Source: a virus. From it: DNA of 45,555 bases. The notes under the pieces were generated by a model, which saw only the letters and a list, made by a program, of their open reading frames with translations, did no database searches and had not been told where the DNA came from. Where the stretch lies: UHGV virus genome UHGV-2198558; one strand, 5' to 3'. A program made the position numbers and the translations under genes. Positions 5,321 through 44,248 of the stretch are shown in pieces; position 1 is the first letter of the stretch; each line of letters starts with the position of its first letter.

Positions 5321-5333
5321 TACAAAATTGCAC

Positions 5334-8863: not shown

Positions 8864-8906
8864 GATACCCACAAAAAGACCTCTCCCACGACAGTATATG
8901 AGAGGG
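8863..8906. repeat. Copy 1 of a 44-bp intergenic repeat (second copy at 22690-22733)
   Basis: ggatacccacaaaaagacctctcccacgacagtatatgagaggg; 41 of 44 positions identical to copy 2; contains a cctctc/gagagg hairpin. Confidence 0.6.
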
Positions 8907-8994
8907 CTTGAAAAGAAACCAAACCGCAAGCGGCTGCAAAGCCCTCGCAGCCGAACCATTATTACATCGGTCGAAAGACCTGAACAGAAAGGAA

Positions 8995-22689: not shown

Positions 22690-22733
22690 GGATACCCACA
22701 AAATGCCCTCTCCCACGACAGTATATGAGGGGC
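22690..22733. repeat. Copy 2 of the 44-bp intergenic repeat
   Basis: ggatacccacaaaatgccctctcccacgacagtatatgaggggc; hairpin preserved through an A-U to G-U change. Confidence 0.6.
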
Positions 22734-22826
22734 GTTGTTCAGACCGACCACAAACACACTACAAACCAAGCGGGACTGACCGCCCCTATCACTATGCAAC
22801 ACCACTGTGGAAAGGAGGCAGAGACA

Positions 22827-29776: not shown

Positions 29777-32339
29777 CGGCTCCGGTGGCTTTCCGCTTGG
29801 CGGCATCCTTGCAGGGATCGAGCCGAAGTGGAGCAGCGAAATTGAACCATTCCCGGTGCTTGTCACGCACAAGCGGCTGCCGCAGGTGAAGCACTACGGC
29901 GATGTATCCAAACTGAACGGAGCAGAGCTTCCGCCGGTGGATATCATCACCTTCGGCAGCCCGTGTCAGGATCTGTCCATAGCGGGCAAGCGCGCCGGAA
30001 TCCATGACGGTGATCGGTCAAACCTGTTCTTTCAGGCGATCCGCATCATCAAAGAAATGAGGGATGCAACAAATGGACGATATCCGCGATACTGCGTCTG
30101 GGAAAATGTCCCCGGCGCTTTCTCATCCAACGGAGGAAACGACTTCAAGGCTGTCCTCGAAGCAGTTATCGGAGTTAAAGAAAAAGGGATCGAGGTGCCT
30201 GCGCCTGAAAATCACAGATGGGCAAAATCAGACGTATATCTGGGAGACGGATGGAGCGTGGCTTACCGAGTTTTCGATGCTCAATACTGGGGTGTCCCCC
30301 AACGCAGAGCAAGAATCTACCTTGTCGCAGATCTTGCTGGTGGAAGTGCCGGAGAAGTATTATTTAAGTCCGAAGGCGTGTCTGGGTATACTCCGCAGGG
30401 CTTCCGTGCGTGGCAAGGAGCTGCCGGAGGTGCTGAAGAAGGCACTGGAGAGACAGGCGGGCGGTCTGACGCTGGAGGTGGAACCCTCTGCCTGAATACA
30501 CAGGGCAACAGCGGCGTCGGCATCACCGAGAACAAGGCTCTCGCACTGGTCGCACAGGATCATGGCAATCATCCGGCTGTGCTTCATGCGGTCGGTATCG
30601 ACGGCTACAATGCTGCGGTCACCGATGATACGGCAGCAACGCTTGGTGTGAACTGCGGAATGTCCACAGGCAGAAACGGTGTCCTGCAGGCGGCGGGATT
30701 TTCCACAGAACACAGTGCAAAAGCAAGGAGCATCGGCTACGAGGAAGAGGTATCTCCCACACTTCGAGCCGGTGTTGTTCCGGCGGCAATGGAGTTATAT
30801 GAAAATCATGGGCAGGACAGCAGATTCAGAGGACCTTTGGATGTAGCACAGCCTGTGACTGCTACCTACGGCATGGGCGGCAACAATCAGCCGCTTGTGG
30901 TAGAGAACAATCCCACGGACGGCAGAGCGAAGATCAATCCCGACGGTGTGTTTCAGACGCTCTGCGGACGAGCCGGAACAGGCGGAAACAACACGCCGCT
31001 TGTTGCTGAACCGGTCACGCTGAAAATCAGGTCGGGATGTGAGGGCGGTGGCAAGGGTGCTTTATGGCAGACCGACAAGTCTGCTACGCTCGGCACAAAC
31101 AATGACCAGAGTGTATTTGTTCCGTTCGTCAAGGGAACACGTCCGCACTCTGCTGAAGAGGGGCAAACATGGAAACCCGGCGAGGTCGCCAATACACTGA
31201 ATACCTTTGATGTCGGTGAAAGTCGCTGCAATGAACTTGTGGTGGAAGAGCCGCAGATCAGGGCTTTCGGTGTATGCAGCAAGCATTCCAATGCGATGAT
31301 GTCCGACAATCCGCACAGCGGATTCTATGAGGCGACCACAAGCAGAACGCTCGACCAAAGTGGTGGAAATTCTGTGACATCGAATCAGGGCGGCATCTGC
31401 GTGGTAGCACCTGCGCCTGAAACCTTCGATGTGCGTTTCACATCAGACGGTACAAAAAACGCTCGTGGGCATTGCTATCCGACAGACATCTCCCGATGCC
31501 TTGATACGAGCGAGGGATCGCCAGACTCGAATCACGGCGGTGTCGCTGTGGTGGCTCTTGAACCGGGGGCTGCATCACGTGTCGGCGGTCATGTATACAG
31601 TGACGGCAAAAGCGGTACGCTTCGAGCCAATGCCGGCGATAATCAGCAGGCTGTTGTGGTCGCCGAGCCGGAGACCTATGCTCTGCAAGGCTCGATGATC
31701 GGTCGTGCCGACAAGAACGGTCCGCAGGGTGATGGCATCAACGAGGATGTGTGCTTTACGCTCAATACATCGGACAGACACGCCATTGCCGCACCTGATC
31801 CGTCCTTCACAATTTCCCGCGACAACCATTTTGCCGTTTCGGAGGATGTATCCGTTACAGCCGTGGCAAGAGGCCCTGCGGCAGTCGCAGCACCGGCAGA
31901 CCACTATTGCACCAGTAAGAATTCGCATCATACGGTCGCCGCCCATGAGCAGGCAAACACGCTGGTCGCTTCCGACTGGAAGGATCCGCCGCTTGTGAAC
32001 GACCTTCCGAATGACGAGCCAGTATATATCGTTCGCCGCTTGACTCCGGTTGAGTGCGCCAGATTGCAGGGATTCCCTGACTGGTGGTGTGCCGACCTTG
32101 CAATTACTGATCCTTCCGATGAGGAGATCGCCTTCTGGACGGAGGTCTGGGAGACATGGCGGCAGGTCACAAATCCCAAGGGCAAGCCGAAAACGGAAAA
32201 GCAGATCCGCAAATGGCTGGCTGATCCGTACACGGATTCAGCGGAGTACAAGCTGTGGGGCAACGGTGTCTCAGAGCCGGTCGTATACTTCGTGCTTTCC
32301 GGCATCGCATGGGCAGCGCAGAGAGATACACAAAAGTGA
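29736..32339 (+). CDS. C5-cytosine DNA methyltransferase with an unusually long, repetitive target-recognition region
   Basis: Motif I LFDGSGGF, motif IV GSPCQDLSIAGKR, motif VI ENVPGA, motif X RRLTPVECARLQGFPDWW; about 550 aa between motifs VIII and IX with at least 8 TL-type motifs; 867 aa. Confidence 0.85.
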   Translation: MMDQKHLTLGSLFDGSGGFPLGGILAGIEPKWSSEIEPFPVLVTHKRLPQVKHYGDVSKLNGAELPPVDIITFGSPCQDLSIAGKRAGIHDGDRSNLFFQAIRIIKEMRDATNGRYPRYCVWENVPGAFSSNGGNDFKAVLEAVIGVKEKGIEVPAPENHRWAKSDVYLGDGWSVAYRVFDAQYWGVPQRRARIYLVADLAGGSAGEVLFKSEGVSGYTPQGFRAWQGAAGGAEEGTGETGGRSDAGGGTLCLNTQGNSGVGITENKALALVAQDHGNHPAVLHAVGIDGYNAAVTDDTAATLGVNCGMSTGRNGVLQAAGFSTEHSAKARSIGYEEEVSPTLRAGVVPAAMELYENHGQDSRFRGPLDVAQPVTATYGMGGNNQPLVVENNPTDGRAKINPDGVFQTLCGRAGTGGNNTPLVAEPVTLKIRSGCEGGGKGALWQTDKSATLGTNNDQSVFVPFVKGTRPHSAEEGQTWKPGEVANTLNTFDVGESRCNELVVEEPQIRAFGVCSKHSNAMMSDNPHSGFYEATTSRTLDQSGGNSVTSNQGGICVVAPAPETFDVRFTSDGTKNARGHCYPTDISRCLDTSEGSPDSNHGGVAVVALEPGAASRVGGHVYSDGKSGTLRANAGDNQQAVVVAEPETYALQGSMIGRADKNGPQGDGINEDVCFTLNTSDRHAIAAPDPSFTISRDNHFAVSEDVSVTAVARGPAAVAAPADHYCTSKNSHHTVAAHEQANTLVASDWKDPPLVNDLPNDEPVYIVRRLTPVECARLQGFPDWWCADLAITDPSDEEIAFWTEVWETWRQVTNPKGKPKTEKQIRKWLADPYTDSAEYKLWGNGVSEPVVYFVLSGIAWAAQRDTQK

Positions 32340-32416
32340 ACGCATAACGTGCCCGTTTTGAAACGATGAAACGAAAACTCCCGAATCTGCGTTACTTTGA
32401 TTTCGCAAAGATACAC

Positions 32417-32599
32417 TCATTCAGATTTCTTGTCTCCGCCAAGCTCGATCTTTCCGTGCTTTTCCTCATATTTTTCAATGCAGTCACGGATCAGGATCAG
32501 AACCTGACTGTTGGCAGAACGACCTTCGTAATCGGCAACAACGTGAAGTTTATCAAGCATCTCCTGTTCGATACGGATGGATACACTTTTAATAGCCAT
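32417..32599 (-). CDS. Ribbon-helix-helix (CopG/Arc-like) DNA-binding protein
   Basis: MAIKSVSIRIEQEMLDKL... beta-strand then helix pattern; AAGGA RBS; the only minus-strand gene in the 35-kb plus-strand block. Confidence 0.55.
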   Translation of the reverse strand: MAIKSVSIRIEQEMLDKLHVVADYEGRSANSQVLILIRDCIEKYEEKHGKIELGGDKKSE

Positions 32600-32712
32600 A
32601 AAACAACTTCCTTTCAGATATATTATGACTTTATTTTAGACCTGTTTTGTGGTATAATGTTTGAAATGGATATAAAGTGTATCTAAAATATATCTATAAG
32701 AAGTTGTACGAT

Positions 32713-33051
32713 ATGAAAATAGCAATTATTGGCTCACGGGGACTTCATGTGAATGACCTTGAACGGTATCTTCCGGAAGATGTCACAGAAATCGTCAGCG
32801 GAGGAGCAAGGGGCATTGATTCGGATGCGCGGGCATACGCACAGGCACACGGCATTCCGCTGAAGGAGTTTCTGCCGGATTATGAACGCTTCGGCAGGAG
32901 CGCCCCGCTGAAACGGAATCTTGAGATCATCGCTTATGCCGATGTGGTGCTTGCATTCTGGGACGGACAGTCACGCGGCACGAAATATGTGATAGACCAT
33001 TGCCGGGAACAGCACGTTCCGGTCAGGGTTTTCGCACCGAGAAAGAAATAG
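32713..33051 (+). CDS. SLOG/DprA-like Rossmann-fold protein
   Basis: IAIIGSRG...VSGGARGIDSDARAYA...ADVVLAFWDGQSRGT pattern; start uncertain (ATG 32713 or GTG 32677). Confidence 0.5.
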   Translation: MKIAIIGSRGLHVNDLERYLPEDVTEIVSGGARGIDSDARAYAQAHGIPLKEFLPDYERFGRSAPLKRNLEIIAYADVVLAFWDGQSRGTKYVIDHCREQHVPVRVFAPRKK

Positions 33052-33186
33052 TAATAAAGAAGCCATGCAGCAAATTGTGAACATTCTGATACTAAATCAG
33101 ATGTTCTGCCGCAGGGCTTCTTTCTATTCTGTACTATGCACAATCTAAAGGGCAGACACGCCCCGTACATTCTCCGTTTTACAGTC

Positions 33187-33215
33187 TTGCATTCCGGGGC
33201 AAAAGACGGTAATAT
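33187..33215 (+). promoter_or_regulatory. Cassette promoter 1
   Basis: TTGCAT, 17-nt spacer, TAATAT, followed by GTGAC leader. Confidence 0.5.
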
Positions 33216-33283
33216 GTGACTACGAAAACGCCGCAGCCCAACGCACAAGGCTGAGGGGCGGCAGTAAAAACGGAGGTAATCAT

Positions 33284-34192
33284 ATGGAAATCAAGTTCAA
33301 TATTGAAAAGAGCCAGCGCAAGGCACTGGCACAGAAAATCGGCGAGCTGACAGGAGCAGAGGTCAAGTACCTCGGTGTACCGGGCTGCAGATACCAGATC
33401 GACTTCTTCACCCTGGACAAAAACGCAGTCCTCAGTTTCAGCGACCGCATCGACACAGATATCGTGGAGAAGGTACTGAATGGGCTTGCAGAGGCAGGAT
33501 ATGAAAGCAAAACAGTAGCACCGCCGGAAGAAACGGATGCTTCGGCTGAATCAGAGCCGGATATCCCTGACGAACCGAGCAGCGGATTTCCGCTGCTCGC
33601 AAGCATCAGCTTCCCGATTGCAGAGCACACGGTGCAGAGCCTTACAAACCTTATCTGCATGATCCACTCCCGCGGCGCACTTCTCAGCAAGGCGACCGGC
33701 GGACAGTTCTTCGCAGACAAGAGCCTCGCCGATGCGATCCTCGATGACAAGACCTTCCGCAGCATCCACGAGCTTATCGCCTACATCAGAGTATGGGAGG
33801 AAACGAATCCCGAACTGAAGGGCATCCGTTTCGCCGATGACAAGCTGATCTTTGACGGCTTCGGTGCAGCGCAGGATGCCGAAACGGTGCAGACCTTCAC
33901 CAAGCTCGCCACAGCCATGAACAGGATGGCGATCACGCAGAAACGTGTGCAGGCAAAGGATGTCGATGACAGCAACGAAAAGTACGCACTCCGCATCTGG
34001 CTGATCCGCCTTGGGCTGAACGGCGCAGACTGCAAGGTTGACCGCAAGCGCCTCATGGCTCCGCTTTCCGGACACACCGCATTCCGCAACGATGCGGAGC
34101 GTGTGCGCTGGGAGGCAAAGCAAAAGGCAAAGCGTGATGCTGCCAGAACCGAACTGACCGAGGAGGATGAAAACGATGCAGTTTCCGAATGA
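33284..34192 (+). CDS. Hypothetical protein sharing a C-terminal module with the amidoligase
   Basis: CGGAGG RBS; C-terminus KYALRIWLIRLGLNGADCKVDRKRLMAPLSGHTAFRN aligns with the amidoligase C-terminus. Confidence 0.6.
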   Translation: MEIKFNIEKSQRKALAQKIGELTGAEVKYLGVPGCRYQIDFFTLDKNAVLSFSDRIDTDIVEKVLNGLAEAGYESKTVAPPEETDASAESEPDIPDEPSSGFPLLASISFPIAEHTVQSLTNLICMIHSRGALLSKATGGQFFADKSLADAILDDKTFRSIHELIAYIRVWEETNPELKGIRFADDKLIFDGFGAAQDAETVQTFTKLATAMNRMAITQKRVQAKDVDDSNEKYALRIWLIRLGLNGADCKVDRKRLMAPLSGHTAFRNDAERVRWEAKQKAKRDAARTELTEEDENDAVSE

Positions 34193-34424
34193 AAGACAGC
34201 TCAGAGCCTTGCGGGAGCGTTATCCCGCAGGCACCCGCATCCGACTGAAGCATATGGATGACCCTTATGCACCCGTACCGCCCGGCACGGTCGGCGAGGT
34301 TCAGATGGTTGATGACGGCGGCAACATACACATGGTCTGGGAGAATGGCAGAACGCTCTCCCTTATAGACGGTGTCGATGATTTCCAGGTCATTTCTGAC
34401 CGCAATGGGGGCTCCGGAAAATAA
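34176..34424 (+). CDS. Small conserved protein (DUF4314-like by recall)
   Basis: GAGGAGG RBS 9 nt before ATG 34176; GTVGEVQMVDDGGNIHMVWENGRTLSLIDGVDDF. Confidence 0.45.
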   Translation: MQFPNERQLRALRERYPAGTRIRLKHMDDPYAPVPPGTVGEVQMVDDGGNIHMVWENGRTLSLIDGVDDFQVISDRNGGSGK

Positions 34425-34537
34425 GAGATCCTATTCCATTGTATCCGAGTATACCATAGAATTTCAAGTATATCAAGTGTACACATACACCAGATATGAG
34501 CAATGTATTTTCCTCGATATTCTGTGGTTTTAGCGGC

Positions 34538-34566
34538 TTGCTATATCCTCCGAAAGACGGTAATAT
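34538..34566 (+). promoter_or_regulatory. Cassette promoter 2
   Basis: TTGCTA, 17-nt spacer, TAATAT, then conserved leader GTGACACAACGGAAGGGCAAACGCCCACCGAAAA. Confidence 0.55.
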
Positions 34567-34621
34567 GTGACACAACGGAAGGGCAAACGCCCACCGAAAA
34601 ACCGAATCGGAGGATACCAAA

Positions 34622-35566
34622 ATGACTGAGAAAACCGCACAGCAGATCAACAGAATGAAGGAGCAGACCATCGGGGTTGAGATCGAGATGAACAACATCA
34701 CCCGCAAGGCTGCCGCAAAGCTCGCCGCCGACTTCTTCGGCACGAACCGCTACGAGGACACGGCCTGCCGCAACGGCTACGAAACCTACAGTGCTTGGGA
34801 CGCACAGGGACGCGAGTGGAAATTCCAGAAGGACGTCAGCATCGCAGGCCCCGACAGCGAAAAGTGCGAACTGGTCACACCGATCCTGCACTACGCAGAC
34901 ATCGAAACCCTGCAGGAGCTTGTGAGAAGGCTCAGAAAGGCAGGAGCGCGCAGTGATTACACGCGGGGATGTGGAGTCCACTGCCACATTGGAGCCCAGG
35001 GACACACACCGCAGAGCCTCAGAAACCTCGCAAACCTTATGGCAAGCCACGAAACCCTGATCGCCGAGGCAATCAGAGTAGACCAGAGCAGAATGCACCG
35101 CTACTGCAGAACAGTTGACCCGAGATTCCTTGAACAGCTCAACCGCAAAAAGCCCACCACGATGGCACAGCTTGCGGACATCTGGTACGGCGCACAGGGC
35201 TGCGAATACGGCAGAACCCACCACTACAACGACAGCCGCTATCACATGCTCAACCTCCACGCTACCTTCACCAAAGGCACGGTCGAGTTCAGACTTTTCC
35301 AGTTCGCACCGCCTTCCAACGGCAAGCAGAACGGGCTCCACGCAGGCAAGCTCAAGAGCTACATTCAGCTCTGCCTCGCAATGAGCCAGATGGCAAAGGA
35401 CCTGCGGAGCGCCAGCCCCAAGGAACAGCAGAAGGAAAACAAAAAGTTCGCCATGCGGACTTGGCTGATGAGAATGGGATTCATCGGGGATGAATTCGCA
35501 ACGGCGAGAGAGGTCCTCACTGAGAACCTTACGGGCGACAACAGCTTCCGCTTCGGCAGATCTTAA
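34622..35566 (+). CDS. Amidoligase_2-family enzyme (putative peptide/metabolite ligase)
   Basis: N-terminal GVEIE motif; 314 aa; immediately upstream of an AIG2-like cyclotransferase gene, the conserved neighbourhood I recall for this family in Firmicutes phages. Confidence 0.65.
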   Translation: MTEKTAQQINRMKEQTIGVEIEMNNITRKAAAKLAADFFGTNRYEDTACRNGYETYSAWDAQGREWKFQKDVSIAGPDSEKCELVTPILHYADIETLQELVRRLRKAGARSDYTRGCGVHCHIGAQGHTPQSLRNLANLMASHETLIAEAIRVDQSRMHRYCRTVDPRFLEQLNRKKPTTMAQLADIWYGAQGCEYGRTHHYNDSRYHMLNLHATFTKGTVEFRLFQFAPPSNGKQNGLHAGKLKSYIQLCLAMSQMAKDLRSASPKEQQKENKKFAMRTWLMRMGFIGDEFATAREVLTENLTGDNSFRFGRS

Positions 35567-35831
35567 AGGCCTGCCCTTCGGGGCGGAAGAACAAGCGGAA
35601 CGGCACGGCGGCGCACACAGCCGCCACGGTCTCGGCTCTCGCCTCGGTCGGTGCTTCTGCTTCGCAGAGGTTGCCACTGGCAACCCGCACCCCCGTGTGT
35701 GGCGGAAAGGGTATCCTCCGAATCGGTATCCCATCTCAGTCAACCGCGCCACACAGCGCAAATGTAGGCAAGGCATAAAATGCACAACATACGGCACAGA
35801 ATCGCCCTCGATGATCTGTTCATTTACCCGC

Positions 35832-35860
35832 TTGATAATGCCGCCGAAATGAGTTAACAT
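35832..35860 (+). promoter_or_regulatory. Cassette promoter 3 (diverged leader)
   Basis: TTGATA, 17-nt spacer, TAACAT. Confidence 0.45.
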
Positions 35861-35899
35861 AGCACTACCGCAAGGAAAAAACGCAAAGGAGAACATAGC

Positions 35900-36367
35900 A
35901 TGAACAAGAAAAAATACTACATAGCCTACGGCAGCAACCTCAACATCCGCCAGATGCGATTCCGCTGCTCAGGCGCAAAGCCCATCGGCATTTCCGCGAT
36001 TCCTGACTACGAACTGCTCTTCAAGGGCAGCAAGACGGGAGCGTACCTCACCATCGAGCCGAAGGACGGCGGGCTTGTTCCGGTCGCCGTGTGGGAAGTG
36101 ACAGCCGACGATGAGAAGCACCTCGACATCTACGAGGGCTACCCGAACTTCTACTACAAGAAGGAAGTCCGCCTGCCAATCAGGCTGGCAAACGGCAAGA
36201 CCAAAAAGGTCACGGCATTTGTCTACATCATGCACGAGGAGCGTGAGATTGCGATCCCGTCAATGACCTACATCCGCACCTGCGAGGAAGGCTACCGCAA
36301 CTTCGGCTTCGACACCAAGTTCCTTGATGCCGCCTACGAGATCAGCGCAAAGGAGGTACAGCGATGA
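35900..36367 (+). CDS. AIG2-like / gamma-glutamyl cyclotransferase family protein
   Basis: YIAYGSNLNIRQM N-terminal motif; AAAGGAG RBS; 155 aa. Confidence 0.75.
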   Translation: MNKKKYYIAYGSNLNIRQMRFRCSGAKPIGISAIPDYELLFKGSKTGAYLTIEPKDGGLVPVAVWEVTADDEKHLDIYEGYPNFYYKKEVRLPIRLANGKTKKVTAFVYIMHEEREIAIPSMTYIRTCEEGYRNFGFDTKFLDAAYEISAKEVQR

Positions 36368-36564
36368 AAGACCGCAACAAAGAGCCGCACATCTGCCCGA
36401 AATGCGGGCAGGCGTACACCGCCCGACCAGCTCTTTCCCGCGTGGATAACAGCCCAATCTGCCCCGACTGCGGAACGCGTGAAGCGCTTGAAAGCATCGG
36501 CGTCGGACGCGAGGAACAGGACAAGATTCTCGGCATCATCCACGAGAAGTACGAAGGCGAATAA
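36364..36564 (+). CDS. Small zinc-ribbon protein
   Basis: ATGA overlap with the AIG2 stop; CPKCG...CPDCG. Confidence 0.5.
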   Translation: MKDRNKEPHICPKCGQAYTARPALSRVDNSPICPDCGTREALESIGVGREEQDKILGIIHEKYEGE

Positions 36565-36572
36565 GTCGGCAC

Positions 36573-36594
36573 AAAGGGGCGTTACAGCCCCTTT
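36573..36594 (+). terminator. Hairpin, possible weak terminator
   Basis: aaaggggc / gccccttt stem with gttaca loop; weak U-tract. Confidence 0.35.
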
Positions 36595-36635
36595 CCGCAT
36601 TCTCAGGGATAACTTATCCCCCACTTTCCGGGCGT

Positions 36636-36655
36636 GACACGGCGCGTTCTGGCGC
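36636..36655. repeat. Cassette boundary repeat (short copy)
   Basis: gacacggcgcgttctggcgc shares the ACACGGCGCG core with copies at 38314, 39198 and 40524. Confidence 0.45.
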
Positions 36656-36721
36656 AAACTATGTACCTGTTCAGCTTGCTGAAAACGGCGATTCTTCTAC
36701 GATTTATTTTGCACATAGGCG

Positions 36722-36750
36722 TGGACTTTTCAGGCAAAAGGCGGTAGTAT
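36722..36750 (+). promoter_or_regulatory. Cassette promoter 4
   Basis: TGGACT, 17-nt spacer, TAGTAT, then conserved leader. Confidence 0.5.
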
Positions 36751-36807
36751 GTGACACAACGGAAGGGCAGACAGCCCACCGGAATTCATAACATGGAGGA
36801 TACGAAC

Positions 36808-37278
36808 ATGAACGACAGCTACTTTGAGGAGATGACCTTCCAGTGCGCCGCCTATGAACGCGCCAAAAAGGAGCGCGCCGAGCGCAAGGCTCAGATTGCC
36901 GAAGCCCACGGCTACGACAGCCCGGAGGTGGACGCTTGGTACGCTGAGGAGAAGGCGGCAGGTCCTTACCCCTACAGCGGCAATGAGATGAAAGCCTACT
37001 GGGTGTACAAGATGCGCCGCGAGAACGACGGTGACGAGTTCGAGATGAGCGATTACTGCTGGGACAAGGAATTCCACGATTTCATCGAAACGCTCCGCAA
37101 GCTAGGCATCACCGAGTTCACGATCACCAATCAGAGCACGGCGCTGATGGAGAACATCTACGGATTTATTGCAGAAGGCTGCACGATGGTCGGAACGCAC
37201 ACCATCACCAAGAAGAGCCTGCGCTGGGGCGAGGAAGAATACGAAACGGCACAGGGCATCCTTTTCAAGGTGAACTGA
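36808..37278 (+). CDS. Hypothetical protein
   Basis: GGAGGA RBS 7 nt before ATG 36808; 156 aa. Confidence 0.6.
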   Translation: MNDSYFEEMTFQCAAYERAKKERAERKAQIAEAHGYDSPEVDAWYAEEKAAGPYPYSGNEMKAYWVYKMRRENDGDEFEMSDYCWDKEFHDFIETLRKLGITEFTITNQSTALMENIYGFIAEGCTMVGTHTITKKSLRWGEEEYETAQGILFKVN

Positions 37279-37286
37279 TATCGACA

Positions 37287-37322
37287 GGAGCAGGGCTTCG
37301 GCTCTGCTCCCCTCCCCCTTTT
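37287..37322 (+). terminator. Rho-independent-like terminator
   Basis: 10-bp stem ggagcagggc / gctctgctcc with ttcg tetraloop, then a C/T-rich tract ending TTTT. Confidence 0.5.
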
Positions 37323-37395
37323 CCTCATGTGTAAATCCTACAATACGAAAGGCTGAGATCGGCGATTCTTCTACGTTTTATTTTGCACATAGGCG

Positions 37396-37424
37396 TGGAC
37401 TTATCAGCAGGATCATGGTAATAT
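37396..37424 (+). promoter_or_regulatory. Cassette promoter 5
   Basis: TGGACT, 17-nt spacer, TAATAT, then conserved leader. Confidence 0.5.
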
Positions 37425-37479
37425 GTGACACAACGGAAGGGCAGAACGCCTACCGAAAAACGAAACGGAGGATAACACC

Positions 37480-37800
37480 ATGAACCCCTACACACTGAGA
37501 AAGAGCCTGAACCTGATTGATGCCAACACGGCGATCACCCGCGAGGACTTCGAGAGCCTCTTCTGCAAGACTGCAGAGCGTGTCACCTTTACCTTCAACG
37601 GTTGGGACGGCAAGAGCTATGATGGCGAGAGGCGCAGCGGTTACGTTTACCGCACCATCATCGAGGGCTACGAGAATGTGAGATTCGTTAAGGTCGGCAA
37701 GGGACTGCATTACATCGATGAGGACAGCAGCATTACCGAGAAGGCTACGGGCATCGCCCACAAGGAAGCAGAGTGGCTGGTCGATGTGAAGAGAGCATAA
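37480..37800 (+). CDS. Hypothetical protein
   Basis: CGGAGGA RBS; 106 aa. Confidence 0.6.
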   Translation: MNPYTLRKSLNLIDANTAITREDFESLFCKTAERVTFTFNGWDGKSYDGERRSGYVYRTIIEGYENVRFVKVGKGLHYIDEDSSITEKATGIAHKEAEWLVDVKRA

Positions 37801-37866
37801 GCAAAACAGCGGAGCCCTTCCTGCGGGGAGGGCTTACCGCAGAAAAAAACATGGAGGTTTACGAAC

Positions 37867-38250
37867 ATGAGTACGAATTCAAGAGTCGGAATTCTGCATC
37901 AGGACGGCGTCACGGAGACAATCTACTGCCATTGGGACGGCTACCCCGAACACCAGATGCCCATCCTCACCGAGCATTATAACACCGCCGAGAAGGTCAA
38001 GGCACTGCTTGCCCTTGGAGACATCAGCATCCTCGGCGAGCGCCTTGCTCCCGATGCGGATGAGCCGCACAGCTTTGAAAAGCCTGCCGATGGTGTGACG
38101 GTTGCTTACCACCGCGACCGCAAAGAGCCGATGCAGCCTGCGGTCACCCACAAGAGCGTTGTTTCCCTGATGAGCGATGACTGGGGCATTCCGTATTACT
38201 ACCTTTTCGATGAGGAAAAAGGAGCATGGCTTCCGCCGACCGAGGACTGA
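37867..38250 (+). CDS. Hypothetical protein
   Basis: GGAGG RBS 9 nt before ATG; 127 aa; no own promoter, co-transcribed with 37480. Confidence 0.6.
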   Translation: MSTNSRVGILHQDGVTETIYCHWDGYPEHQMPILTEHYNTAEKVKALLALGDISILGERLAPDADEPHSFEKPADGVTVAYHRDRKEPMQPAVTHKSVVSLMSDDWGIPYYYLFDEEKGAWLPPTED

Positions 38251-38313
38251 TAGGTTCAGCCCTGCGGGGCTGACTTGCCCCACGTTGTCCTTTGTGCGGT
38301 TTTCCTGCGATAA

Positions 38314-38366
38314 GCTTGCCCCTGCGGAAAGCCGCCTCACACGGCGCGTTTGTGTGCCTCCTGTGG
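38314..38366. repeat. Cassette boundary repeat
   Basis: cttgcccctgcggaaagccgcctcacacggcgcgtttgtgtgcctcctgtggg. Confidence 0.5.
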
Positions 38367-38430
38367 GCTTGGTGCTATGTATACAACAAATGGCGCAGAT
38401 ACGCCGATTTTGTTCTGAACATTTAGCCGC

Positions 38431-38459
38431 TTGCTATTCCGGAAAGATCATGGTAATAT
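38431..38459 (+). promoter_or_regulatory. Cassette promoter 6
   Basis: TTGCTA, 17-nt spacer, TAATAT, then conserved leader. Confidence 0.5.
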
Positions 38460-38515
38460 GCTACACAACGGAAGGGCAAACGCCCACCGAATACAAAACA
38501 CGGAGGTAAACCACC

Positions 38516-38898
38516 ATGACAAAGAAGGAAATGAAAGCCGCAGTTGCCAAGCTGAAGATGCTGCAGAACGGCAAAGCCGCCCTTGAGGGAATGACCGAAG
38601 CGGACTGCCTTGAGCTTTTCGGGATCAGCAGAGCGCAGGCACTTGCAAACACAAACGCCGCCCTTGCCAAAACCGAGCAGGAGATTTNNNNNNNNNNNNN
38701 NNNNNNNNNNNNGAGCATCCGCTGACAGGCATCGACAAACAGCTCTTCGAGATCGCAGCAAAGCACCTGATCACGGTGCAGGAGCGCGGAGACCTTGAAG
38801 CCCGCCACTGCGACAGCGAGGACTTCATCGAGGGTTCGGTCTGGGGGCTGGAAGCCGCCCTCAAGGATGCCTACGAGGCAGGACGCAAGAGCAAGTAA
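38516..38898 (+). CDS. Hypothetical protein interrupted by an assembly gap
   Basis: CGGAGGT RBS and ATG 38516; coding resumes after the N-run and ends at TAA 38896-38898. Frame across the gap cannot be determined. Confidence 0.4.
38688..38712. other. Assembly gap (25 N)
   Basis: Run of n characters in the sequence. Confidence 0.99.
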
Positions 38899-38960
38899 CC
38901 AAACGGAACAGCGCAGCCCTTCCGCAGGGAGGGGCTGCCAATCCCGAAGGAGGAAAGAAC

Positions 38961-39140
38961 ATGGATACATACGCACAGCTTGAAATGCTGACCGCAGTCA
39001 TCGCAAACCTGTCGGCCACGGGAACATGGACGGAGCGAGAAGTGATGGAAACGCTGCTGGATGTCTTTGAACCGAAGGAGCTTGAACAGCTCGGCTACGG
39101 CGACTGCGTGAACGCATACTTGGAAGAGTACGGCGGATAG
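38961..39140 (+). CDS. Small acidic protein (59 aa), below the ORF-track length cutoff
   Basis: AAGGAGGAAA RBS 7 nt before ATG 38961; MDTYAQLEMLTAVIANLS...EEYGG, stop TAG 39138-39140. Confidence 0.5.
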   Translation: MDTYAQLEMLTAVIANLSATGTWTEREVMETLLDVFEPKELEQLGYGDCVNAYLEEYGG

Positions 39141-39197
39141 CGACGACACACGCACCACGTTGCCTCGTGTGGGGCGGTGCCGGGGAGATGCGTACAG

Positions 39198-39240
39198 CTT
39201 GCCCCTGCGAAAAGCCGCCTTACACGGCGCGTTCTGGCGC
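39198..39240. repeat. Cassette boundary repeat
   Basis: cttgcccctgcgaaaagccgccttacacggcgcgttctggcgc. Confidence 0.5.
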
Positions 39241-39310
39241 GTCCTATACGATGTACAATTCCGCCCGACTTCCCGCCTCATGTTTGTCACATTTATTTTG
39301 CAGACAGACG

Positions 39311-39339
39311 TGGACTTTTCTGCGAAAAGACGGTAATAT
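39311..39339 (+). promoter_or_regulatory. Cassette promoter 7
   Basis: TGGACT, 17-nt spacer, TAATAT. Confidence 0.5.
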
Positions 39340-39386
39340 GTGACTACCGCAAGAGAAGCGGAATCAATCAAAAGGAGCGAATCTAC

Positions 39387-39740
39387 ATGAAAATTCTGGT
39401 ATGCGAACCCGGCAAGCACCCCTACGTCAAGGACATCGAGTCGGGGCTGGAGAACCTTCAGCACGAGGTGGACGGACTGATTCAGGCCCTCTACCCATTT
39501 TCCGAAGAGGCGGCTGTTGTGTGCAACGAAGAAGGGCTGTTCCGCGATGACCTCGAATGGAACAGAACGGTCGATCCCTATGGTCCGATCAAGGGAACAT
39601 TCTTCATTTGTGGGCTCGGCTTTGAAGATTTTACAGGACTGACCGATGAACAGATCGAAAAGTACACTAAGCTCTTCTGGCCTCCTGAGCTTTTCATCCC
39701 GACACCGAACGGCATGGTGGTGCTTCACATTGTGGAATGA
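39387..39740 (+). CDS. DUF3846-like protein
   Basis: AAAGGAG RBS; MKILVCEPGKHPYVKDIE...YPF...VVCNEEG...GTFFICG pattern, recalled from mobile-element proteins of Firmicutes. Confidence 0.55.
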   Translation: MKILVCEPGKHPYVKDIESGLENLQHEVDGLIQALYPFSEEAAVVCNEEGLFRDDLEWNRTVDPYGPIKGTFFICGLGFEDFTGLTDEQIEKYTKLFWPPELFIPTPNGMVVLHIVE

Positions 39741-39843
39741 CCGCAACAGGGGCAGGGCTTCGGCTCTGCTCCGCACTATTCCCCGGTCATAATGTACACA
39801 ACTGAACGCCGAAAAATGCAGAAATGATCGTGATTACTCACGC

Positions 39844-39872
39844 TTGATAATGTAGGCAAGAAGAGTTATACT
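39844..39872 (+). promoter_or_regulatory. Cassette promoter 8
   Basis: TTGATA, 17-nt spacer, TATACT; leader hairpin variant gggcggaaagccc. Confidence 0.5.
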
Positions 39873-39929
39873 GTGTACAACGGAAGGGCGGAAAGCCCAG
39901 CCGAAAACGAAAATGCGGAGGTACACACC

Positions 39930-40109
39930 ATGAAAACGAAGCAGGAACTGATCGAGAAGGCAAAGAAAGAGTGGGGCGAGACTTGGAACGAGGGCATGAT
40001 CGAGTACGATGCCGAGTACAACGAGTACATCGTCTGGGTAGGCAAGCCGGACATCTACAAAGCCTTCTTCGATGCCGACACCCTCAGATGCATTGGCACG
40101 AAGTGCTGA
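39930..40109 (+). CDS. Small hypothetical protein (59 aa)
   Basis: GCGGAGGT RBS; followed by a ccgccc-ttcg-gggcgg hairpin. Confidence 0.5.
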   Translation: MKTKQELIEKAKKEWGETWNEGMIEYDAEYNEYIVWVGKPDIYKAFFDADTLRCIGTKC

Positions 40110-40164
40110 GAACAACCGCCGCCCTTCGGGGCGGCACAACACCAATACTAAGGAGGACATTTAC

Positions 40165-40437
40165 ATGAGCGAGAACACAGAAAAGCGCGATGCAGCCGAA
40201 GAACTAGAACTTACCGATGCACAGGCAGACCGCAACGATGACATCTACGAGGCAGCTTTTGAATTCTGCAAGGTGCTGACCGAGAACCCCGACCTCGAAT
40301 GGGACATGGCGTTCCTCGGTGAGATCGCCGACCTTGCCGCTGGCATCATGACCGAGCAGGGACACAAGGTGCGGTTCCCCAGTGTGGTCACCGAGCAGGA
40401 CGGCACGCAGTACATTGAAGAATACTACGGCGGCTGA
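40165..40437 (+). CDS. Small highly acidic protein (90 aa)
   Basis: AAGGAGG RBS before ATG 40165; roughly 23 Asp/Glu against about 6 basic residues. Confidence 0.55.
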   Translation: MSENTEKRDAAEELELTDAQADRNDDIYEAAFEFCKVLTENPDLEWDMAFLGEIADLAAGIMTEQGHKVRFPSVVTEQDGTQYIEEYYGG

Positions 40438-40523
40438 TCGGCAAAACGGAGCAGTCCTTCTGCGGAGGGGCTGTTCCACGCCACGTTCGCTTGTGTGGGG
40501 GGCTTACGGCTTTCTGCGGATAT

Positions 40524-40575
40524 CTTGCCCCGCGATAAAAGCCGCCCACACGGCGCATTTGTGTGCCTCCTGTGG
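40524..40575. repeat. Cassette boundary repeat
   Basis: cttgccccgcgataaaagccgcccacacggcgcatttgtgtgcctcctgtgg. Confidence 0.5.
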
Positions 40576-40638
40576 CAAGGCATAATATGTACAACAACCG
40601 ACAAAAAATCGCCTTGCACATTCTGGTAGTTTAGCCGC

Positions 40639-40667
40639 TTGATATATCTGCCGAAAAGAGTTATAGT
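40639..40667 (+). promoter_or_regulatory. Cassette promoter 9
   Basis: TTGATA, 17-nt spacer, TATAGT; leader variant with cgggaaaccg hairpin. Confidence 0.5.
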
Positions 40668-40723
40668 GTGTACAACGGAACGGGAAACCGAGCCGAAAAC
40701 TACGAAAGAACGAGGTAAACACT

Positions 40724-40960
40724 ATGTGGCACGAAGGCACGATTCTGGCACCGACCAAGGAAGGCAAGACGGTGGTTCACTACTGGGCAAAGGTCTACGA
40801 CGAGGGCAGCCAGTACGGCATCAACGAGGGCAGAATCAGTAAACTGACACTCAAGGAGAATGGCAAGGTCATCTACAACTATGACAGAGGCGAGGATGTA
40901 CCCGAGCAGAACGAGGCTGCGGAGATTGCCCTTGCGATCCTGATGTACGAGTACAAGTAA
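40724..40960 (+). CDS. Small hypothetical protein (78 aa)
   Basis: ORF directly downstream of cassette promoter 9 and its leader; weak SD (ACGAGG). Confidence 0.5.
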   Translation: MWHEGTILAPTKEGKTVVHYWAKVYDEGSQYGINEGRISKLTLKENGKVIYNYDRGEDVPEQNEAAEIALAILMYEYK

Positions 40961-41048
40961 ATAGAACGGTCGGTAGGCGGTAGCATTAAGCCGCCCATCC
41001 AAACCAAGACGGACACACATATAAATTCAAGGTGGATATACATAGGAG

Positions 41049-41077
41049 AGGCTTGCAGCACGCAGGCCTTTTCTTTA
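41049..41077 (+). terminator. Rho-independent terminator closing the cassette array
   Basis: 8-bp stem aggcttgc / gcaggcct (one G-U), 5-nt loop, then TTTTCTTT. Confidence 0.65.
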
Positions 41078-41108
41078 TGCAGATTTTTTGAGAAAAGGAG
41101 TGATGCGG

Positions 41109-41582
41109 ATGGCTCAGAGAGGCAGAAAACCGACGCCGACAGCAATCAAGGAACTGGAAGGCAATCCCGGAAAACGACCGCTGAATGATGCAGAGCCGAA
41201 GCCGGAACGCAAGGCACCGCCCTGTCCGAAGTGGCTGGAGCCCGAAGCAAAAAAGGAATGGCGCAGGCTGTCAAAGCAACTGGAGCAGATTGGTGTGCTG
41301 ACCGAGGTCGATCAGGCGGCATTCGCATCCTACTGTCAGGCATACGCACGATGGAAAGAAGCCGAGGAATTCATGACCCAGCACGGCACGATCGTAAAAA
41401 CAAAATCAGGTTACTGGCAGCAGGTTCCGCAGGTATCCATTGCGCAAACTTATCTGAAGATCATGAACAAGATCGCAGAGCAGTTTGGCCTGACCCCGGC
41501 GGCAAGAAGCCGTATCACTGCCGGCGCAGATATGAAAAACGCTGCCGTTGACGATATGGATGAACTTCTCGGAGGTGGCTGA
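41109..41582 (+). CDS. terS: Terminase small subunit (P27-family-like)
   Basis: MAQRGRKPTPTAIKELEGNPGKRPLN N-terminus; AAGGAG RBS 8 nt before ATG 41109; stop overlaps the terL start. Confidence 0.8.
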   Translation: MAQRGRKPTPTAIKELEGNPGKRPLNDAEPKPERKAPPCPKWLEPEAKKEWRRLSKQLEQIGVLTEVDQAAFASYCQAYARWKEAEEFMTQHGTIVKTKSGYWQQVPQVSIAQTYLKIMNKIAEQFGLTPAARSRITAGADMKNAAVDDMDELLGGG

Positions 41583-44248
41583 TGGCGAGAACGGCAAAGG
41601 CAAGAGAAAGACCTGCCAACTATCCGAAACTGAAGGATTATAAACCGACACGCTTTATGCTGCCGGAATCGCACTACGATGCGGCAAAGGCTGACCGAGC
41701 TGTGCGGTTCATCGAGAATCTCTGCCATACCAAAGGACGCTGGGCAGGCAAACCGTTCTGGCTGCTTCCGTGGCAGGAACAGATCATCCGGGATATTTTC
41801 GGCATCGTCAAAGAGGACGATATGCGGCAATTTCGTACCGCCTATGTCGAAATTCCAAAGAAAAATGGGAAGCAGCTTGCACTGGATACACCGATCCCGA
41901 CTCCGCAGGGATTCACCAATATGGGAGATCTGAAGGTCGGAGATACAGTATTCGATGAAAACGGCATTCCGTGCCATGTGGTTGCGAAAAGTCCTGTGGA
42001 TGATACAGAGCAAGCCTACAAGCTGACCTTCAAGGACGGCACCTCGATCATTGCCGGGGAAAGGCATCTGTGGAACTGTCAGTATATTTACGGCAAACGC
42101 AAGGATGTTCTCTGGACGACCGGCGAGATCTATCGCAGGACAACGGAATACAGACAGCGTTTTTCCGACAGACCACAGACAAAGCGGGATTCCCTTATCC
42201 GAATTCCGGTGTGCGGTGTCCTTCAGACAGAAGCGGCAGTTTTACCGATTGATCCGTATCTGTACGGCTACTGGCTCGGAAACGGTAATGTGACCATGCC
42301 GGAGATCACTGTTCGGACGGAGGATGTCGAGGATATCATCTCGAATATTCCGTATAAGGTACACAACCGTTATCCGCAGAAATGCGGCGGCAGTGAGATC
42401 ATAAAGTACAATGAACTGAAAGCAGTACTACTTGACAGCTTCCGTGAAAAGAAGATCCGACCAGAATATCTGAGGGCATCCGCAGAGCAGAGATGGGCAT
42501 TACTGCAAGGGCTTATGGATTCGGACGGCTGTATCGGCGAACGCAAAGGGCAAAGTGTGTATGTCACAACGCTGCGAGAGCTGGCGCTTTCCGTCAGAGA
42601 ACTGCTGTGGTCACTCGGCATCAAAAATGCAGTGAAATGTGAGCCTTCTACACGGCATGGGTGGCCGACCGGCGAGATTTTGTATATCGTCCGTTTTACA
42701 ACCTTTGATGGCCAACCGACATCAAGGCTTAAACGCAAAAATACACGCACACAGGCGCGGTTAAAGGAAACTCGCTCCTGTTTTCATTATCTGCTGGATA
42801 TTCAACCTGTAAATCATCCTGTAAAAATGCAGTGCATTCAGGTGGACAGTCCGAGTCACCAATATCTCGCAGGACCGTCATTTGTGCCTACGCACAACAG
42901 TGAGCTTGCAGCGGCAATTGCACTGTATCTGCTCTACGCCGACAACGAGCCGTCTGCTGAGGTCTACGGCGCTGCTGCTGATCGTGGGCAGGCATCCATT
43001 GTATTCGATGTCGCCAAAAGAATGGTTGAGATGACACCGGCACTTCTGAAACGCTCAAAAATCATGGCGGCGACAAAGCGTCTGGTGAATTACAGTAATG
43101 TTGGCTTTTATCAGGTGCTTTCAGCGGAAGTCGGTACAAAGCACGGATTGAATGTATCCGGTCTGGTTTTGGATGAACTTCATGCCCAACCGAACCGCAG
43201 CCTTGTGGATGTTCTCACAAAGGGTTCCGGTGATGCCCGTACTCAGCCGCTGTACTTCCTGATCACAACCGCCGGAACGGATCGCAACAGCATCTGCTAC
43301 GAGTATCACACGAAAGCAAAAGATATTCTGGACGGCAGGCGCATTGATCCGTCCTTCTATCCTGTGATCTACGGCTTGAACGATGATGACGACTGGAACG
43401 CAGAGGAGTCATGGTATAAGGCAAATCCCTCGCTCGGATACACTATCGCCATCGACCGAGTCCGCGATGCTCACCGGGAAGCCCTTACAAATCCCGCTGA
43501 AGAAAATGTATTCCGTCAGCTGAGGCTTGACCAGTGGGTAGGCAGTGCGGTGGCATGGATTCCGGAGCATATCTACGACAGGGGCAATCTTCCGATCGAC
43601 CTCGAAAAGCTCCGGGGACGGGAGTGCTACGCAGGTCTTGACCTATCCAGCACATCGGATATCACGGCATTTGTGCTGGTGTTCCCTCCGCTGCATGACG
43701 GCGAGAAATACATCGTTGTCCCGCACTTCTGGCTGCCGAGAGAAACGCTCGATTTGCGAGTACGGCGAGACCATGTTCCCTACGATGTATGGGAGCGCAT
43801 GGGATTATTTCATATCACCGAGGGCAATGTGGTCGATTACAATTTCGTGCGGAAAACGATCAACGAGCTGCACACGATGTACAACATCAAGGAAATTGCT
43901 GCCGACCGCTGGAATGCCACACAGCTTATCACAGACCTTGAGGGAGACGGATTTACCGTTGTTCCGATGGGTATGGGCTTCAAGGATATGTCCCCGCCGA
44001 TGAAGGAACTGTACAAGCTCATACTCGAGGGGCAGTTTATCCACGGCGGCAACCCTGTACTCCGCTGGATGGCAGGAAATGTGGTCGCTGAAATTGATGC
44101 AGCGGAGAACATCAAACCAAGTAAAAAGAAAAGTACAGAAAAGATTGACGGTATCGTGGCATGGATCATGGCACTTGACCGCTGCATCCGCCACGAAATG
44201 CAGGGCAGTGTCTATGACGAACCCGGCCACGATCTTGTGGTCATCTGA
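41582..44248 (+). CDS. terL: Terminase large subunit interrupted by an intein
   Basis: 888 aa against a typical size near 550; ATPase P-loop region YVEIPKKNGK / SELAAAIALYLLYAD split by a 342-aa insertion; C-terminal nuclease-domain-like sequence. Confidence 0.85.
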   Translation: MARTAKARERPANYPKLKDYKPTRFMLPESHYDAAKADRAVRFIENLCHTKGRWAGKPFWLLPWQEQIIRDIFGIVKEDDMRQFRTAYVEIPKKNGKQLALDTPIPTPQGFTNMGDLKVGDTVFDENGIPCHVVAKSPVDDTEQAYKLTFKDGTSIIAGERHLWNCQYIYGKRKDVLWTTGEIYRRTTEYRQRFSDRPQTKRDSLIRIPVCGVLQTEAAVLPIDPYLYGYWLGNGNVTMPEITVRTEDVEDIISNIPYKVHNRYPQKCGGSEIIKYNELKAVLLDSFREKKIRPEYLRASAEQRWALLQGLMDSDGCIGERKGQSVYVTTLRELALSVRELLWSLGIKNAVKCEPSTRHGWPTGEILYIVRFTTFDGQPTSRLKRKNTRTQARLKETRSCFHYLLDIQPVNHPVKMQCIQVDSPSHQYLAGPSFVPTHNSELAAAIALYLLYADNEPSAEVYGAAADRGQASIVFDVAKRMVEMTPALLKRSKIMAATKRLVNYSNVGFYQVLSAEVGTKHGLNVSGLVLDELHAQPNRSLVDVLTKGSGDARTQPLYFLITTAGTDRNSICYEYHTKAKDILDGRRIDPSFYPVIYGLNDDDDWNAEESWYKANPSLGYTIAIDRVRDAHREALTNPAEENVFRQLRLDQWVGSAVAWIPEHIYDRGNLPIDLEKLRGRECYAGLDLSSTSDITAFVLVFPPLHDGEKYIVVPHFWLPRETLDLRVRRDHVPYDVWERMGLFHITEGNVVDYNFVRKTINELHTMYNIKEIAADRWNATQLITDLEGDGFTVVPMGMGFKDMSPPMKELYKLILEGQFIHGGNPVLRWMAGNVVAEIDAAENIKPSKKKSTEKIDGIVAWIMALDRCIRHEMQGSVYDEPGHDLVVI
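41873..42898 (+). mobile_element. Intein (342 aa) in TerL, non-canonical Gln at position 1, with LAGLIDADG-like motifs
   Basis: Block A-like QLALDTPIPT, block B-like GERHLW, block F-like MQCIQVD, block G FVPTHN followed by Ser; internal LYGYWLGNGN and LLQGLMDSDGCI. Confidence 0.6.

Follow-up and report, generated by a model that had tools for sequence, protein, structure and literature searches.

What does a short hairpin do that recurs in the 5′ leaders of small accessory genes in a phage genome? The question is raised by the 45,555-nt virus genome UHGV-2198558 (hereafter the window), a temperate phage of the Ruminococcus-type prophage kind, in which positions 34567–34621, the untranslated stretch from the -10 box to the ATG of an Amidoligase_2 gene, carry such a hairpin. 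This leader belongs to one of nine promoter–leader units, all on the plus strand, in an accessory gene array. A preliminary description, made from the sequence alone, had proposed that the leaders share a short hairpin, and folds, z-scores and a covariance model (CM) bear this out: the 5′ leader hairpin is real and conserved. As to its function, we favour, with a probability of about 0.5, a reading in which the hairpin serves as a generic 5′ stabilizer and insulator within a portable promoter–leader–ribosome-binding site (RBS) module, and not as a regulatory switch.

Each of the nine units comprises a sigma-70-like -35 box, a 17-nt spacer, a -10 box and a 33–62-nt leader that ends in a GGAGG Shine–Dalgarno (SD) sequence and an ATG (Table 1). 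A two-tier hairpin is present in six of them (units 2, 4, 5, 6, 8 and 9), two carry other hairpins at the corresponding position (units 1 and 7), and the leader of unit 3 has none (fold z -0.25 against dinucleotide shuffles). The two-tier hairpins follow the pattern CGG-AA-GGGC-loop-GCCC-N-CCG, with folding energies of -8.4 to -13 kcal/mol and z-scores of -2.5 to -4.6 against dinucleotide shuffles; for the five beyond unit 2, only 0–4 of 200 shuffles fold as well (z -2.6 to -4.6). The six leaders share the frame ACAACGGAA–stem-loop–N(1–2)–CCGAA, in which an outer CGG/CCG helix forms across a small internal loop. The GGGC-loop-GCCC element described earlier is therefore present, in unit 2 as GGGC-AAAC-GCCC at 34581–34592, but the real hairpin is longer, the outer helix extending it to 34576–34596. 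The earlier list of variants likewise stands for units 2 and 6, which both read GGGC-AAAC-GCCC, but not for unit 5, which reads GGGC-AGAAC-GCCT and contains a G-U pair. Nor does the hairpin lie just upstream of the SD, as had been stated: in the window units it is found 9–10 nt past the -10 box and 12–17 nt before the SD, adjoining the predicted transcription start.

Within this one genome the loops read AAAC, AGACA, AGAAC, AAAC, GGAAA and GAAA, and the distance from the outer CGG to the outer CCG is 14, 15, 15, 16, 16 and 17 nt in the six units. A covariance model of the motif matches exactly the six leaders in the 45.5-kb window, together with one weak match (E = 0.077); unit 2 is matched at 34572–34607 with 45.8 bits, and by the promoter model as well. 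A search of the whole window at Rfam gathering scores gave no matches, and a permissive Rfam search of 32300–41200 gave two chance-level matches only (E 0.8 and 1.6). All nine units have promoter-like hexamers, spaced by 17 nt, ahead of them, evidence that is partly circular because the units were gathered with a promoter model. Their consensus, TTGMTA-17-TAATAT, resembles host sigma-A promoters as far as sequence can tell.

To place these leaders among relatives, viral contigs were scanned with the exact pattern ACAACGGAAGGGCNNNNNNCC, which gave 94 loci, most with the same promoter context and often with 2–4 copies per contig; roughly 25 of its 143 matches were chance ones. As this pattern fixes the 5′ half of the stem, units were re-collected independently of the hairpin, through loci encoding DUF7678 and amidoligase proteins and with an nhmmer profile of the promoter region only. 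This yielded 660 units in 2.39 Mb; 648 of them are followed within 95 nt by an SD and a start codon, corresponding to 323 distinct leaders, of which 308 were long enough to fold.

Structure is predicted in 306 of these 308 distinct promoter-anchored leaders, with a mean minimum free energy (MFE) of -8.4 kcal/mol compared with -3.7 kcal/mol for dinucleotide shuffles (mean z -2.84; z < -2 in 73%). In 235 of the 306, pairing begins 8–10 nt past the -10 box; the hairpin ends at about 25–31 nt and is followed by an 11–15-nt unpaired spacer, 63% of it A, and then by the GGAGG SD. Among 27 leader clusters less than 72% alike, 16 have z ≤ -2. Variants of the main class include GGC/GCC, CGG-GAAA-CCG, GGCA/TGCC, a merged GGCGGG/CCCGCC helix and shifted outer helices (CGGC/GCCG and CGC/GCG), and other leader classes place unrelated stems at the same position (ACCGC/GCGGT, CCGC/GCGG, TGCC/GGCA and CCGG/CCGG). 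Loops vary freely among leaders; promoter spacers and loops have diverged extensively, whereas stems and hairpin position have not. A 5′ CGG is accompanied by a 3′ CCG in 139 leaders and a 5′ CCG by a 3′ CGG in 26, with 11 discordant cases that are mostly palindromic CCGG or artefacts of the regular expression; these differences mark classes and not independent events. The conservation of structure and position goes far beyond what chance would give, and the varied stems, together with the free loops, point to a shape being kept rather than a specific sequence. Selection on structure, which the preliminary description had read from varied loops and stems with pairing kept, is plausible in view of the fold z-scores, the CGG/CCG association and the pairing in CM-based alignments considered below.

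In the reading we favour, each accessory cassette upstream of the terminase would carry its own copy of a module consisting, in order, of a sigma-A-type promoter, 2–4 unpaired nt, a GC-rich hairpin, an 11–15-nt A-rich unpaired spacer, GGAGG and ATG. That most cassettes close with a GC-rich 3′ hairpin fits this reading. The leader hairpin would form the 5′-terminal stem-loop of the mRNA and act in cis, with no dedicated partner. It would make the 5′ end a poor substrate for 5′-end-dependent decay (by an RppH-type pyrophosphohydrolase and an RNase J1-type 5′ exonuclease) and would keep the RBS in a constant unstructured context regardless of the gene that follows. Where transcription starts, that the hairpin affects stability and that no trans-acting factor takes part are inferences here, and the promoters are putative sigma-A promoters. 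An RNase site and a riboregulator had been among the roles suggested earlier for the hairpin; an RNase-related one, as protection from 5′-end-dependent decay, would be the best-fitting item of that list.

The closest functional analogues are the 5′ stem-loop and STAB-SD stabilizers (the ermC, aprE and ompA leaders, the cryIIIA STAB-SD and the SP82 polypurine element). As in these, a hairpin or SD-like purine tract lies a few nucleotides from the predicted 5′ end, followed by an unstructured region and a strong SD, and shape counts rather than sequence. Unlike them, the phage element is repeated before many cassettes and travels with its promoter; its start is a predicted one and its effect on half-life presumed. 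A hairpin or an SD-like tract at the 5′ end is a documented protection of Firmicute mRNAs from 5′-end-dependent decay, and the two classes of 5′ stabilizer documented in Bacillus place either a hairpin or a ribosome-binding site there or close by (PMC3997798, section 7). The same source gives the preference of RppH as at least three unpaired 5′ nucleotides (PMC3997798, section 7). Short inverted repeats in the leaders of the plasmid p576 regulatory sequences have been interpreted as enhancing RNA half-life (PMC8708921, Fig. 1 legend).

Several observations weigh against this reading. The figure of 2–4 unpaired nucleotides rests on a predicted start, placed at the usual 6–8-nt distance from the -10 box, and Bacillus subtilis RppH still accepts 2–3 unpaired nucleotides (PMC3997798). 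Across the 142 distinct class-A leaders, sequence is conserved beyond purely structural need in the GGGC/GCCC stem as well as in the flanks ACAACGGAA and CCGAA. Covariation on the larger alignment, the check that the preliminary description had called for, is modest. In a sequence-only alignment 80% of cells are paired and covariation is 0.069, against 0.052 for shuffles, and RNAalifold, run on the MAFFT alignment of the 142 leaders, predicts no structure, probably owing to loop and bulge indels that throw the 3′ halves out of register. CM-based alignments pair 82% of cells, compared with at most 53% in slid controls, but such alignments lean toward the structure on which they were built; even there covariation reaches only 0.067 and 0.095, against 0.048 and 0.050 for shuffles, and most pairs are invariant G-C. 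This support is modest because the stems rarely change. The variants had also been called compensatory. Stem variation within the window amounts to a single G-U pair and a single CGG/CCG stem that is shortened and shifted in register; true double substitutions do exist, but only once relatives are added, and the stems are mostly invariant. The strand that carries the structure is likewise not singled out by the folds: the reverse complement folds as well as the plus strand, and counts of G-U against A-C pairs do not identify the RNA strand. In the CM-based alignments A-C pairs (28) outnumber G-U pairs (13–15), partly because of register shifts, and the count is uninformative because the U/G-rich reverse strand has more G-U pairs by composition.

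A further point on that side comes from orthologues. In many related prophages the leaders of the amidoligase and 302-aa-protein genes are short, A-rich and devoid of a hairpin; judged by these leaders, the hairpin is dispensable for expression. They retain GTGACTACCGAAAGGGAAAAC. In favour of the stabilizer reading, however, they have an SD-like GAAAGG(G/A) at the place of the hairpin, so that the mark of a STAB-SD, an SD-like tract near the predicted 5′ end and far from the start codon, is seen in these relatives. In 43 hairpin-less leaders the duplex of this tract with the anti-SD CACCUCCUUUCU, a sequence assumed from general Firmicute knowledge, averages -7.85 kcal/mol against -3.9 kcal/mol for shuffles. 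Orthologous leaders of the 302-aa protein carry the hairpins ACCGC/GCGGT, CACCG/CGGTG or GCCG/CGGC, or none, and in the rumen lineage the A-rich spacer is apparently set off from the conserved start region by an inserted hairpin of varying sequence. If the hairpin does stabilize mRNA, the alternation of hairpin and SD-like tract would be a natural case of two interchangeable 5′ stabilizers; otherwise the element adds no new principle.

In architecture the closest analogues are EGeRS2, the PeSLs and SAS/ESAS. The EGeRS2 of plasmid p576 (pLS20 family, clade II) are blocks 50–68% identical to one another, with a strong sigma-A promoter, that stand before small variable accessory operons; what defines them is the Reg operators, in which dual direct heptamers TTATCCCnnTTATCCC stand on either side of the promoter (PMC8708921). 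The phage units share with them a sigma-A-type promoter block repeated before accessory operons (nine in the window, 660 in related loci), inverted repeats in the leader, a nearby ribbon–helix–helix (RHH) regulator gene and residence in a Firmicute mobile element. They differ in that the RHH gene lies outside the units and lacks regulon co-occurrence (of 26 genome loci that have three or more units, only 4 show an RHH homologue within the 8-kb flanks), and in that the carrier is a prophage and not a conjugative plasmid. A scan for TTATCCCnnTTATCCC found 3-mismatch matches at chance level only, none of them in the array, and no comparable direct repeat flanks the units, bar the A-rich CCGAAA(A).

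The PeSLs of T4-type phages combine a stem-loop with promoter motifs between small accessory genes in plastic regions (PMC2839356, PMC4122927). Both mark exchange points between unrelated genes, and in the window 3′ hairpins precede the next promoter by 60–250 nt; however, the PeSL stem-loop is a terminator upstream of the promoter, whereas the hairpin described here lies downstream, in the 5′ untranslated region (UTR). The conserved block here is promoter plus 5′ UTR, and phage lineage and promoter consensus differ as well. SAS and ESAS of Cluster K mycobacteriophages are oriented repeats at the translation starts of non-structural genes, ESAS being inverted repeats with a variable spacer and 17-bp arms for which the authors found little support for RNA pairing (PMC3203893). 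By contrast, SAS is a 13-bp motif at the RBS itself, and the arms of the present hairpin measure 3 + 4 bp with pairing kept in 82% of cells. The lambdoid nut sites (boxA and boxB) consist of a single-stranded box followed by a 4–5-bp GC hairpin with a 4–5-nt purine-rich loop, downstream of early promoters. The leaders likewise have a conserved single-stranded box and then a GC hairpin just past the promoter, but the boxB loop is conserved within a phage as the determinant recognized by N, whereas here the loops differ and each cassette has its own promoter. Morons, reportedly described by Juhala and Hendrix in 2000 as autonomous promoter–gene–terminator units in lambdoid prophages, resemble the cassettes in having their own promoter and 3′ hairpin and in being inserted between conserved modules; they are usually unrelated single insertions, whereas the control sequences flanking these cassettes form one repeated family.

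That the module may move as a unit is suggested by the leaders collected. The same complete leader is found before genes that are unrelated (MTKKEMKA and MKTLKIYN), in eight cases a 30-nt leader core recurs unchanged ahead of unrelated N-termini, and units with identical leaders and unrelated genes mark the borders of gene replacement between related phages. In the window, units 3 and 9 have a degenerate second -10 box and start region (for example, TAATATGTACAACAACCG) about 75 nt upstream, at 35776–35795 and 40584–40601, which suggests tandem duplication of the promoter block.

Such mobility raises the question of whether the hairpin has a function at all, since it might merely ride in a promoter–leader block that spreads by duplication and homologous recombination, PeSL-style, with its conservation reflecting recent common descent. 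The identical leaders before unrelated genes, the degenerate copies at units 3 and 9, the mostly invariant stems and the orthologues that work without a hairpin would all be expected under this account, which is nevertheless at odds with spacers and loops having diverged while stems and position did not, and cannot explain by descent alone why other classes have unrelated hairpins at the same position; we hold it to be unlikely, if less so than the accounts that follow. Somewhat more doubtful is the proposal that the hairpin and its conserved single-stranded flanks (ACAA... / ...CCGAAAAC) form an RNA site for a trans-acting factor coordinating all cassettes, be it a nut/boxB-like antitermination signal, a translational repressor or a CsrA-like GGA binder. 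The sequence conservation of flanks and GGGC/GCCC stem over the class-A leaders, the repetition of the element before six cassettes, the potential of the cassette-end hairpins to serve as weak terminators and the presence of one GGA in the 5′ flank and another in the SD could each be taken in its favour. The loop, however, usually the determinant in sites of the boxB or coat-protein type, varies within one genome, and three unrelated hairpin classes share the array. Because every cassette has its own promoter, read-through control would be unnecessary. No U tracts accompany the 3′ hairpins, terminator-like sites show no excess in the window (11 found against 11.1 expected), Rfam gave no match and no locus complementary to the leaders, as a trans antisense partner would require, was found in the window. 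Binding by the phage sigma-like protein (8036–8863), a candidate of the preliminary description, is unsupported for kindred reasons: the promoters look like those of host sigma-A, loops vary and three hairpin classes coexist. The RHH protein (32417–32599), its other candidate, fares no better as a binder of this site, given that loops and triplet spacing vary within the genome and that a homologue is near only 4 of 26 loci. That protein could instead act on DNA, the inverted repeat being an operator downstream of the promoter at which a phage repressor silences the cassettes, in the manner of the p576 RHH repressor Reg or of L5 stoperators. A protein bound to the repeat, at about +5 to +30, would indeed obstruct RNA polymerase; the array is headed by an Arc-like RHH gene; and both strands fold equally, so that the symmetry could be read at the DNA level. 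There is also a precedent in p576, whose RHH repressor controls strong promoters that recur before its establishment operons, some of the operators lying beyond the start (PMC8708921). We nonetheless consider an operator improbable: an outer-triplet spacing of 14–17 nt and asymmetric half-sites (AA versus A or AG) would be awkward for a dimer on B-form DNA, hairpin classes with unrelated sequences share the array, and Reg-type TTATCCC dual heptamers are absent. The RHH gene itself lies on the opposite strand behind an unrelated AT-rich promoter region, with neither a unit nor the motif before it, its homologues seldom accompany the units, and the switch region of the CI-like repressor (5150–5560) lacks the motif.

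The leader structure might alternatively control access to the SD, with the 5′ CGG and the CGG inside the SD (CGGAGG) as alternative pairing partners of the 3′ CCG and, in unit 2, with an anti-SD in the promoter spacer silencing read-through transcripts so that only self-initiated ones are translated. The spacer of unit 2 does contain TATCCTCCGA (34544–34553), a perfect 10-nt complement of the SD region TCGGAGGATA at 34607–34616 (duplex z -3.6) that would be present only in read-through RNA; the fold predicted for this RNA (-31.5 kcal/mol, z -4.2) has its SD in a helix, resembling the fold-back inhibition that protects the insertion sequence IS10 from outside transcription. Beyond the window, the duplex has z < -2 in 36% of 90 distinct amidoligase upstream regions, and of 235 distinct spacers 38 contain CTCC, where 4.5 would be expected. 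Yet unit 2 alone is significant among the nine window units, its close relatives L095 and L101 lack the complement, and over all units own-unit duplexes average -9.08 kcal/mol compared with -8.46 kcal/mol for duplexes with the RBS of other units. In self-initiated transcripts, moreover, the SD is predicted to be mostly unpaired (0.45–0.90), and a 3-bp CCG/CGG alternative is energetically trivial. We find control of SD access as improbable as an operator. Complementarity between promoter and RBS was rejected as a general rule, being significant in unit 2 only and weak overall. A bolder combination, in which the two-tier hairpin and its invariant flanks would be a new cis-regulatory RNA, read by a phage or host factor to switch an accessory (possibly anti-defence) regulon together while promoter anti-SDs silence read-through, is again improbable; if true, the array would be a set of individually insulated, co-regulated cassettes. 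Readings of the hairpins as single-stranded DNA promoters or integron attC-like sites were rejected, since the hairpins have only 4–9 bp and the loci are prophages, not conjugative elements; for attC, neither the conserved ends of that type nor an integron integrase was seen.

The promoter–leader module is found in rumen viral contigs and in Ruminococcus flavefaciens prophages. The closest genomic hosts are R. flavefaciens strains and rumen Oscillospiraceae, and the hosts include Ruminococcus sp. XPD3002, which we take to be the source strain of RfxCas13d. More distant loci, in Lachnospiraceae, Peptostreptococcaceae and others, are prophages with matching gene order: methylases, the 302-aa protein, DUF4314, amidoligase and GGACT, followed by TerL, portal and capsid. 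A relative from a cultured community (phage NatCom_991, L216) is classified as Ca. Heliusvirales, and in this and the genome loci L136–L215 the promoter with its GTGACTACC start and the 302-aa protein/DUF4314/amidoligase/GGACT block are common across Clostridia families. In the literature searched on R. flavefaciens prophages and Heliusvirales the element is undescribed. The promoter–leader block offers a compact signature of the accessory island between DNA methylases and terminase in widespread Clostridia prophages (those of R. flavefaciens, of rumen Oscillospiraceae and of relatives of the Ca. Heliusvirales-classified phage). It could delimit cassettes and help to discover accessory or anti-defence genes in the viromes of rumen and gut, and it may supply a natural promoter, 5′ hairpin and RBS part for Clostridia that are hard to engineer.

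Table 1. Coordinates of the promoter–leader units and other features of the window (z against dinucleotide shuffles).
Feature	Position	Strand	Details
CI-like HTH/S24 repressor gene	4259–5149	-	
Sigma-like protein gene	8036–8863		
Arc-like RHH gene	32417–32599	-	At head of accessory array
Small accessory gene array	33.1–41.0 kb		Just upstream of terminase
Unit 1 (302-aa protein/DUF4314 operon)	33187–33283	+	Same promoter type; -10 33210–33215; different, longer hairpin 33230–33262; z -1.3
Unit 2 (amidoligase cassette)	34538–34621	+	-35 TTGCTA 34538–34543; 17-nt spacer; -10 TAATAT 34561–34566; SD GGAGG 34609–34613; ATG 34622
Unit 2 two-tier hairpin	34576–34596	+	CGG-AA-GGGC-AAAC-GCCC-A-CCG; MFE -10.2 to -11 kcal/mol; z -2.5
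Unit 3 (GGACT cassette)	35832–35899	+	Same promoter type, TTGATA-17-TAACAT; short A-rich leader
Unit 4 (DUF7698 cassette)	36722–36807	+	-35 TGGACT; -10 TAGTAT 36745–36750; hairpin 36760–36781, loop AGACA; z -2.7; CM match
Unit 5	37396–37479	+	-10 TAATAT 37419–37424; hairpin 37434–37455, GGGC-AGAAC-GCCU with G-U pair; z -2.65; CM match
Unit 6	38431–38515	+	-35 TTGCTA; -10 TAATAT 38454–38459; hairpin 38469–38489, loop AAAC; z -4.05; CM 47.8 bits
Unit 7 (DUF3846 cassette)	39311–39386	+	Same promoter type; -10 39334–39339; different hairpin CCGC-AAGAGAA-GCGG 39347–39361; z -3.0
Unit 8	39844–39929	+	-35 TTGATA; -10 TATACT 39867–39872; hairpin 39881–39903, loop GGAAA, 3′ bulge AG; z -2.6; promoter scan and CM match
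Unit 9 (DUF7678 cassette)	40639–40723	+	-35 TTGATA; -10 TATAGT 40662–40667; promoter scan and CM match
Unit 9 hairpin	40676–40695	+	CGG-AA-CGG-GAAA-CCG-AG-CCG; z -4.6
3′ hairpins after cassette genes	35571–35586, 36567–36598, 37287–37310, 37809–37840, 38252–38276, 38911–38939, 39749–39772, 40118–40135, 40448–40477		
Terminase small and large subunits	41119–44248		

Outside the array, the window encodes a replication module (DUF2800 nuclease, SSB, PolA, SNF2 helicase and D5 primase), a SAM synthetase, NrdD/NrdG and three DNA methylases. The hairpin that stands directly after most cassette genes is GC-rich and strong (-15 to -27 kcal/mol), has no U tract and could be a 3′ stabilizer or an atypical terminator. 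Upstream of unit 2, an antisense sigma-70-like promoter sequence on the minus strand at 34448–34476 (TTGATA-17-TATACT with an upstream TG) is aimed into the 3′ end of the DUF4314 gene and is conserved across many related loci. A run of N (an assembly gap) at 38689–38712 breaks the gene that starts at 38516. The large terminase subunit TerL (41582–44248) has 888 aa, compared with 505–533 aa in relatives, with a LAGLIDADG_3 domain (residues 303–369) before the ATPase match, and it is likely to contain an intein with a homing endonuclease. A repeat of 48 nt, its two copies 90% identical, occurs directly after the sigma-like gene (8863–8910) and directly after the SAM synthetase gene (22690–22737); it includes the inverted repeat CCTCTC...GAGAGG and might serve as a terminator or as a promoter used by the phage sigma-like protein.

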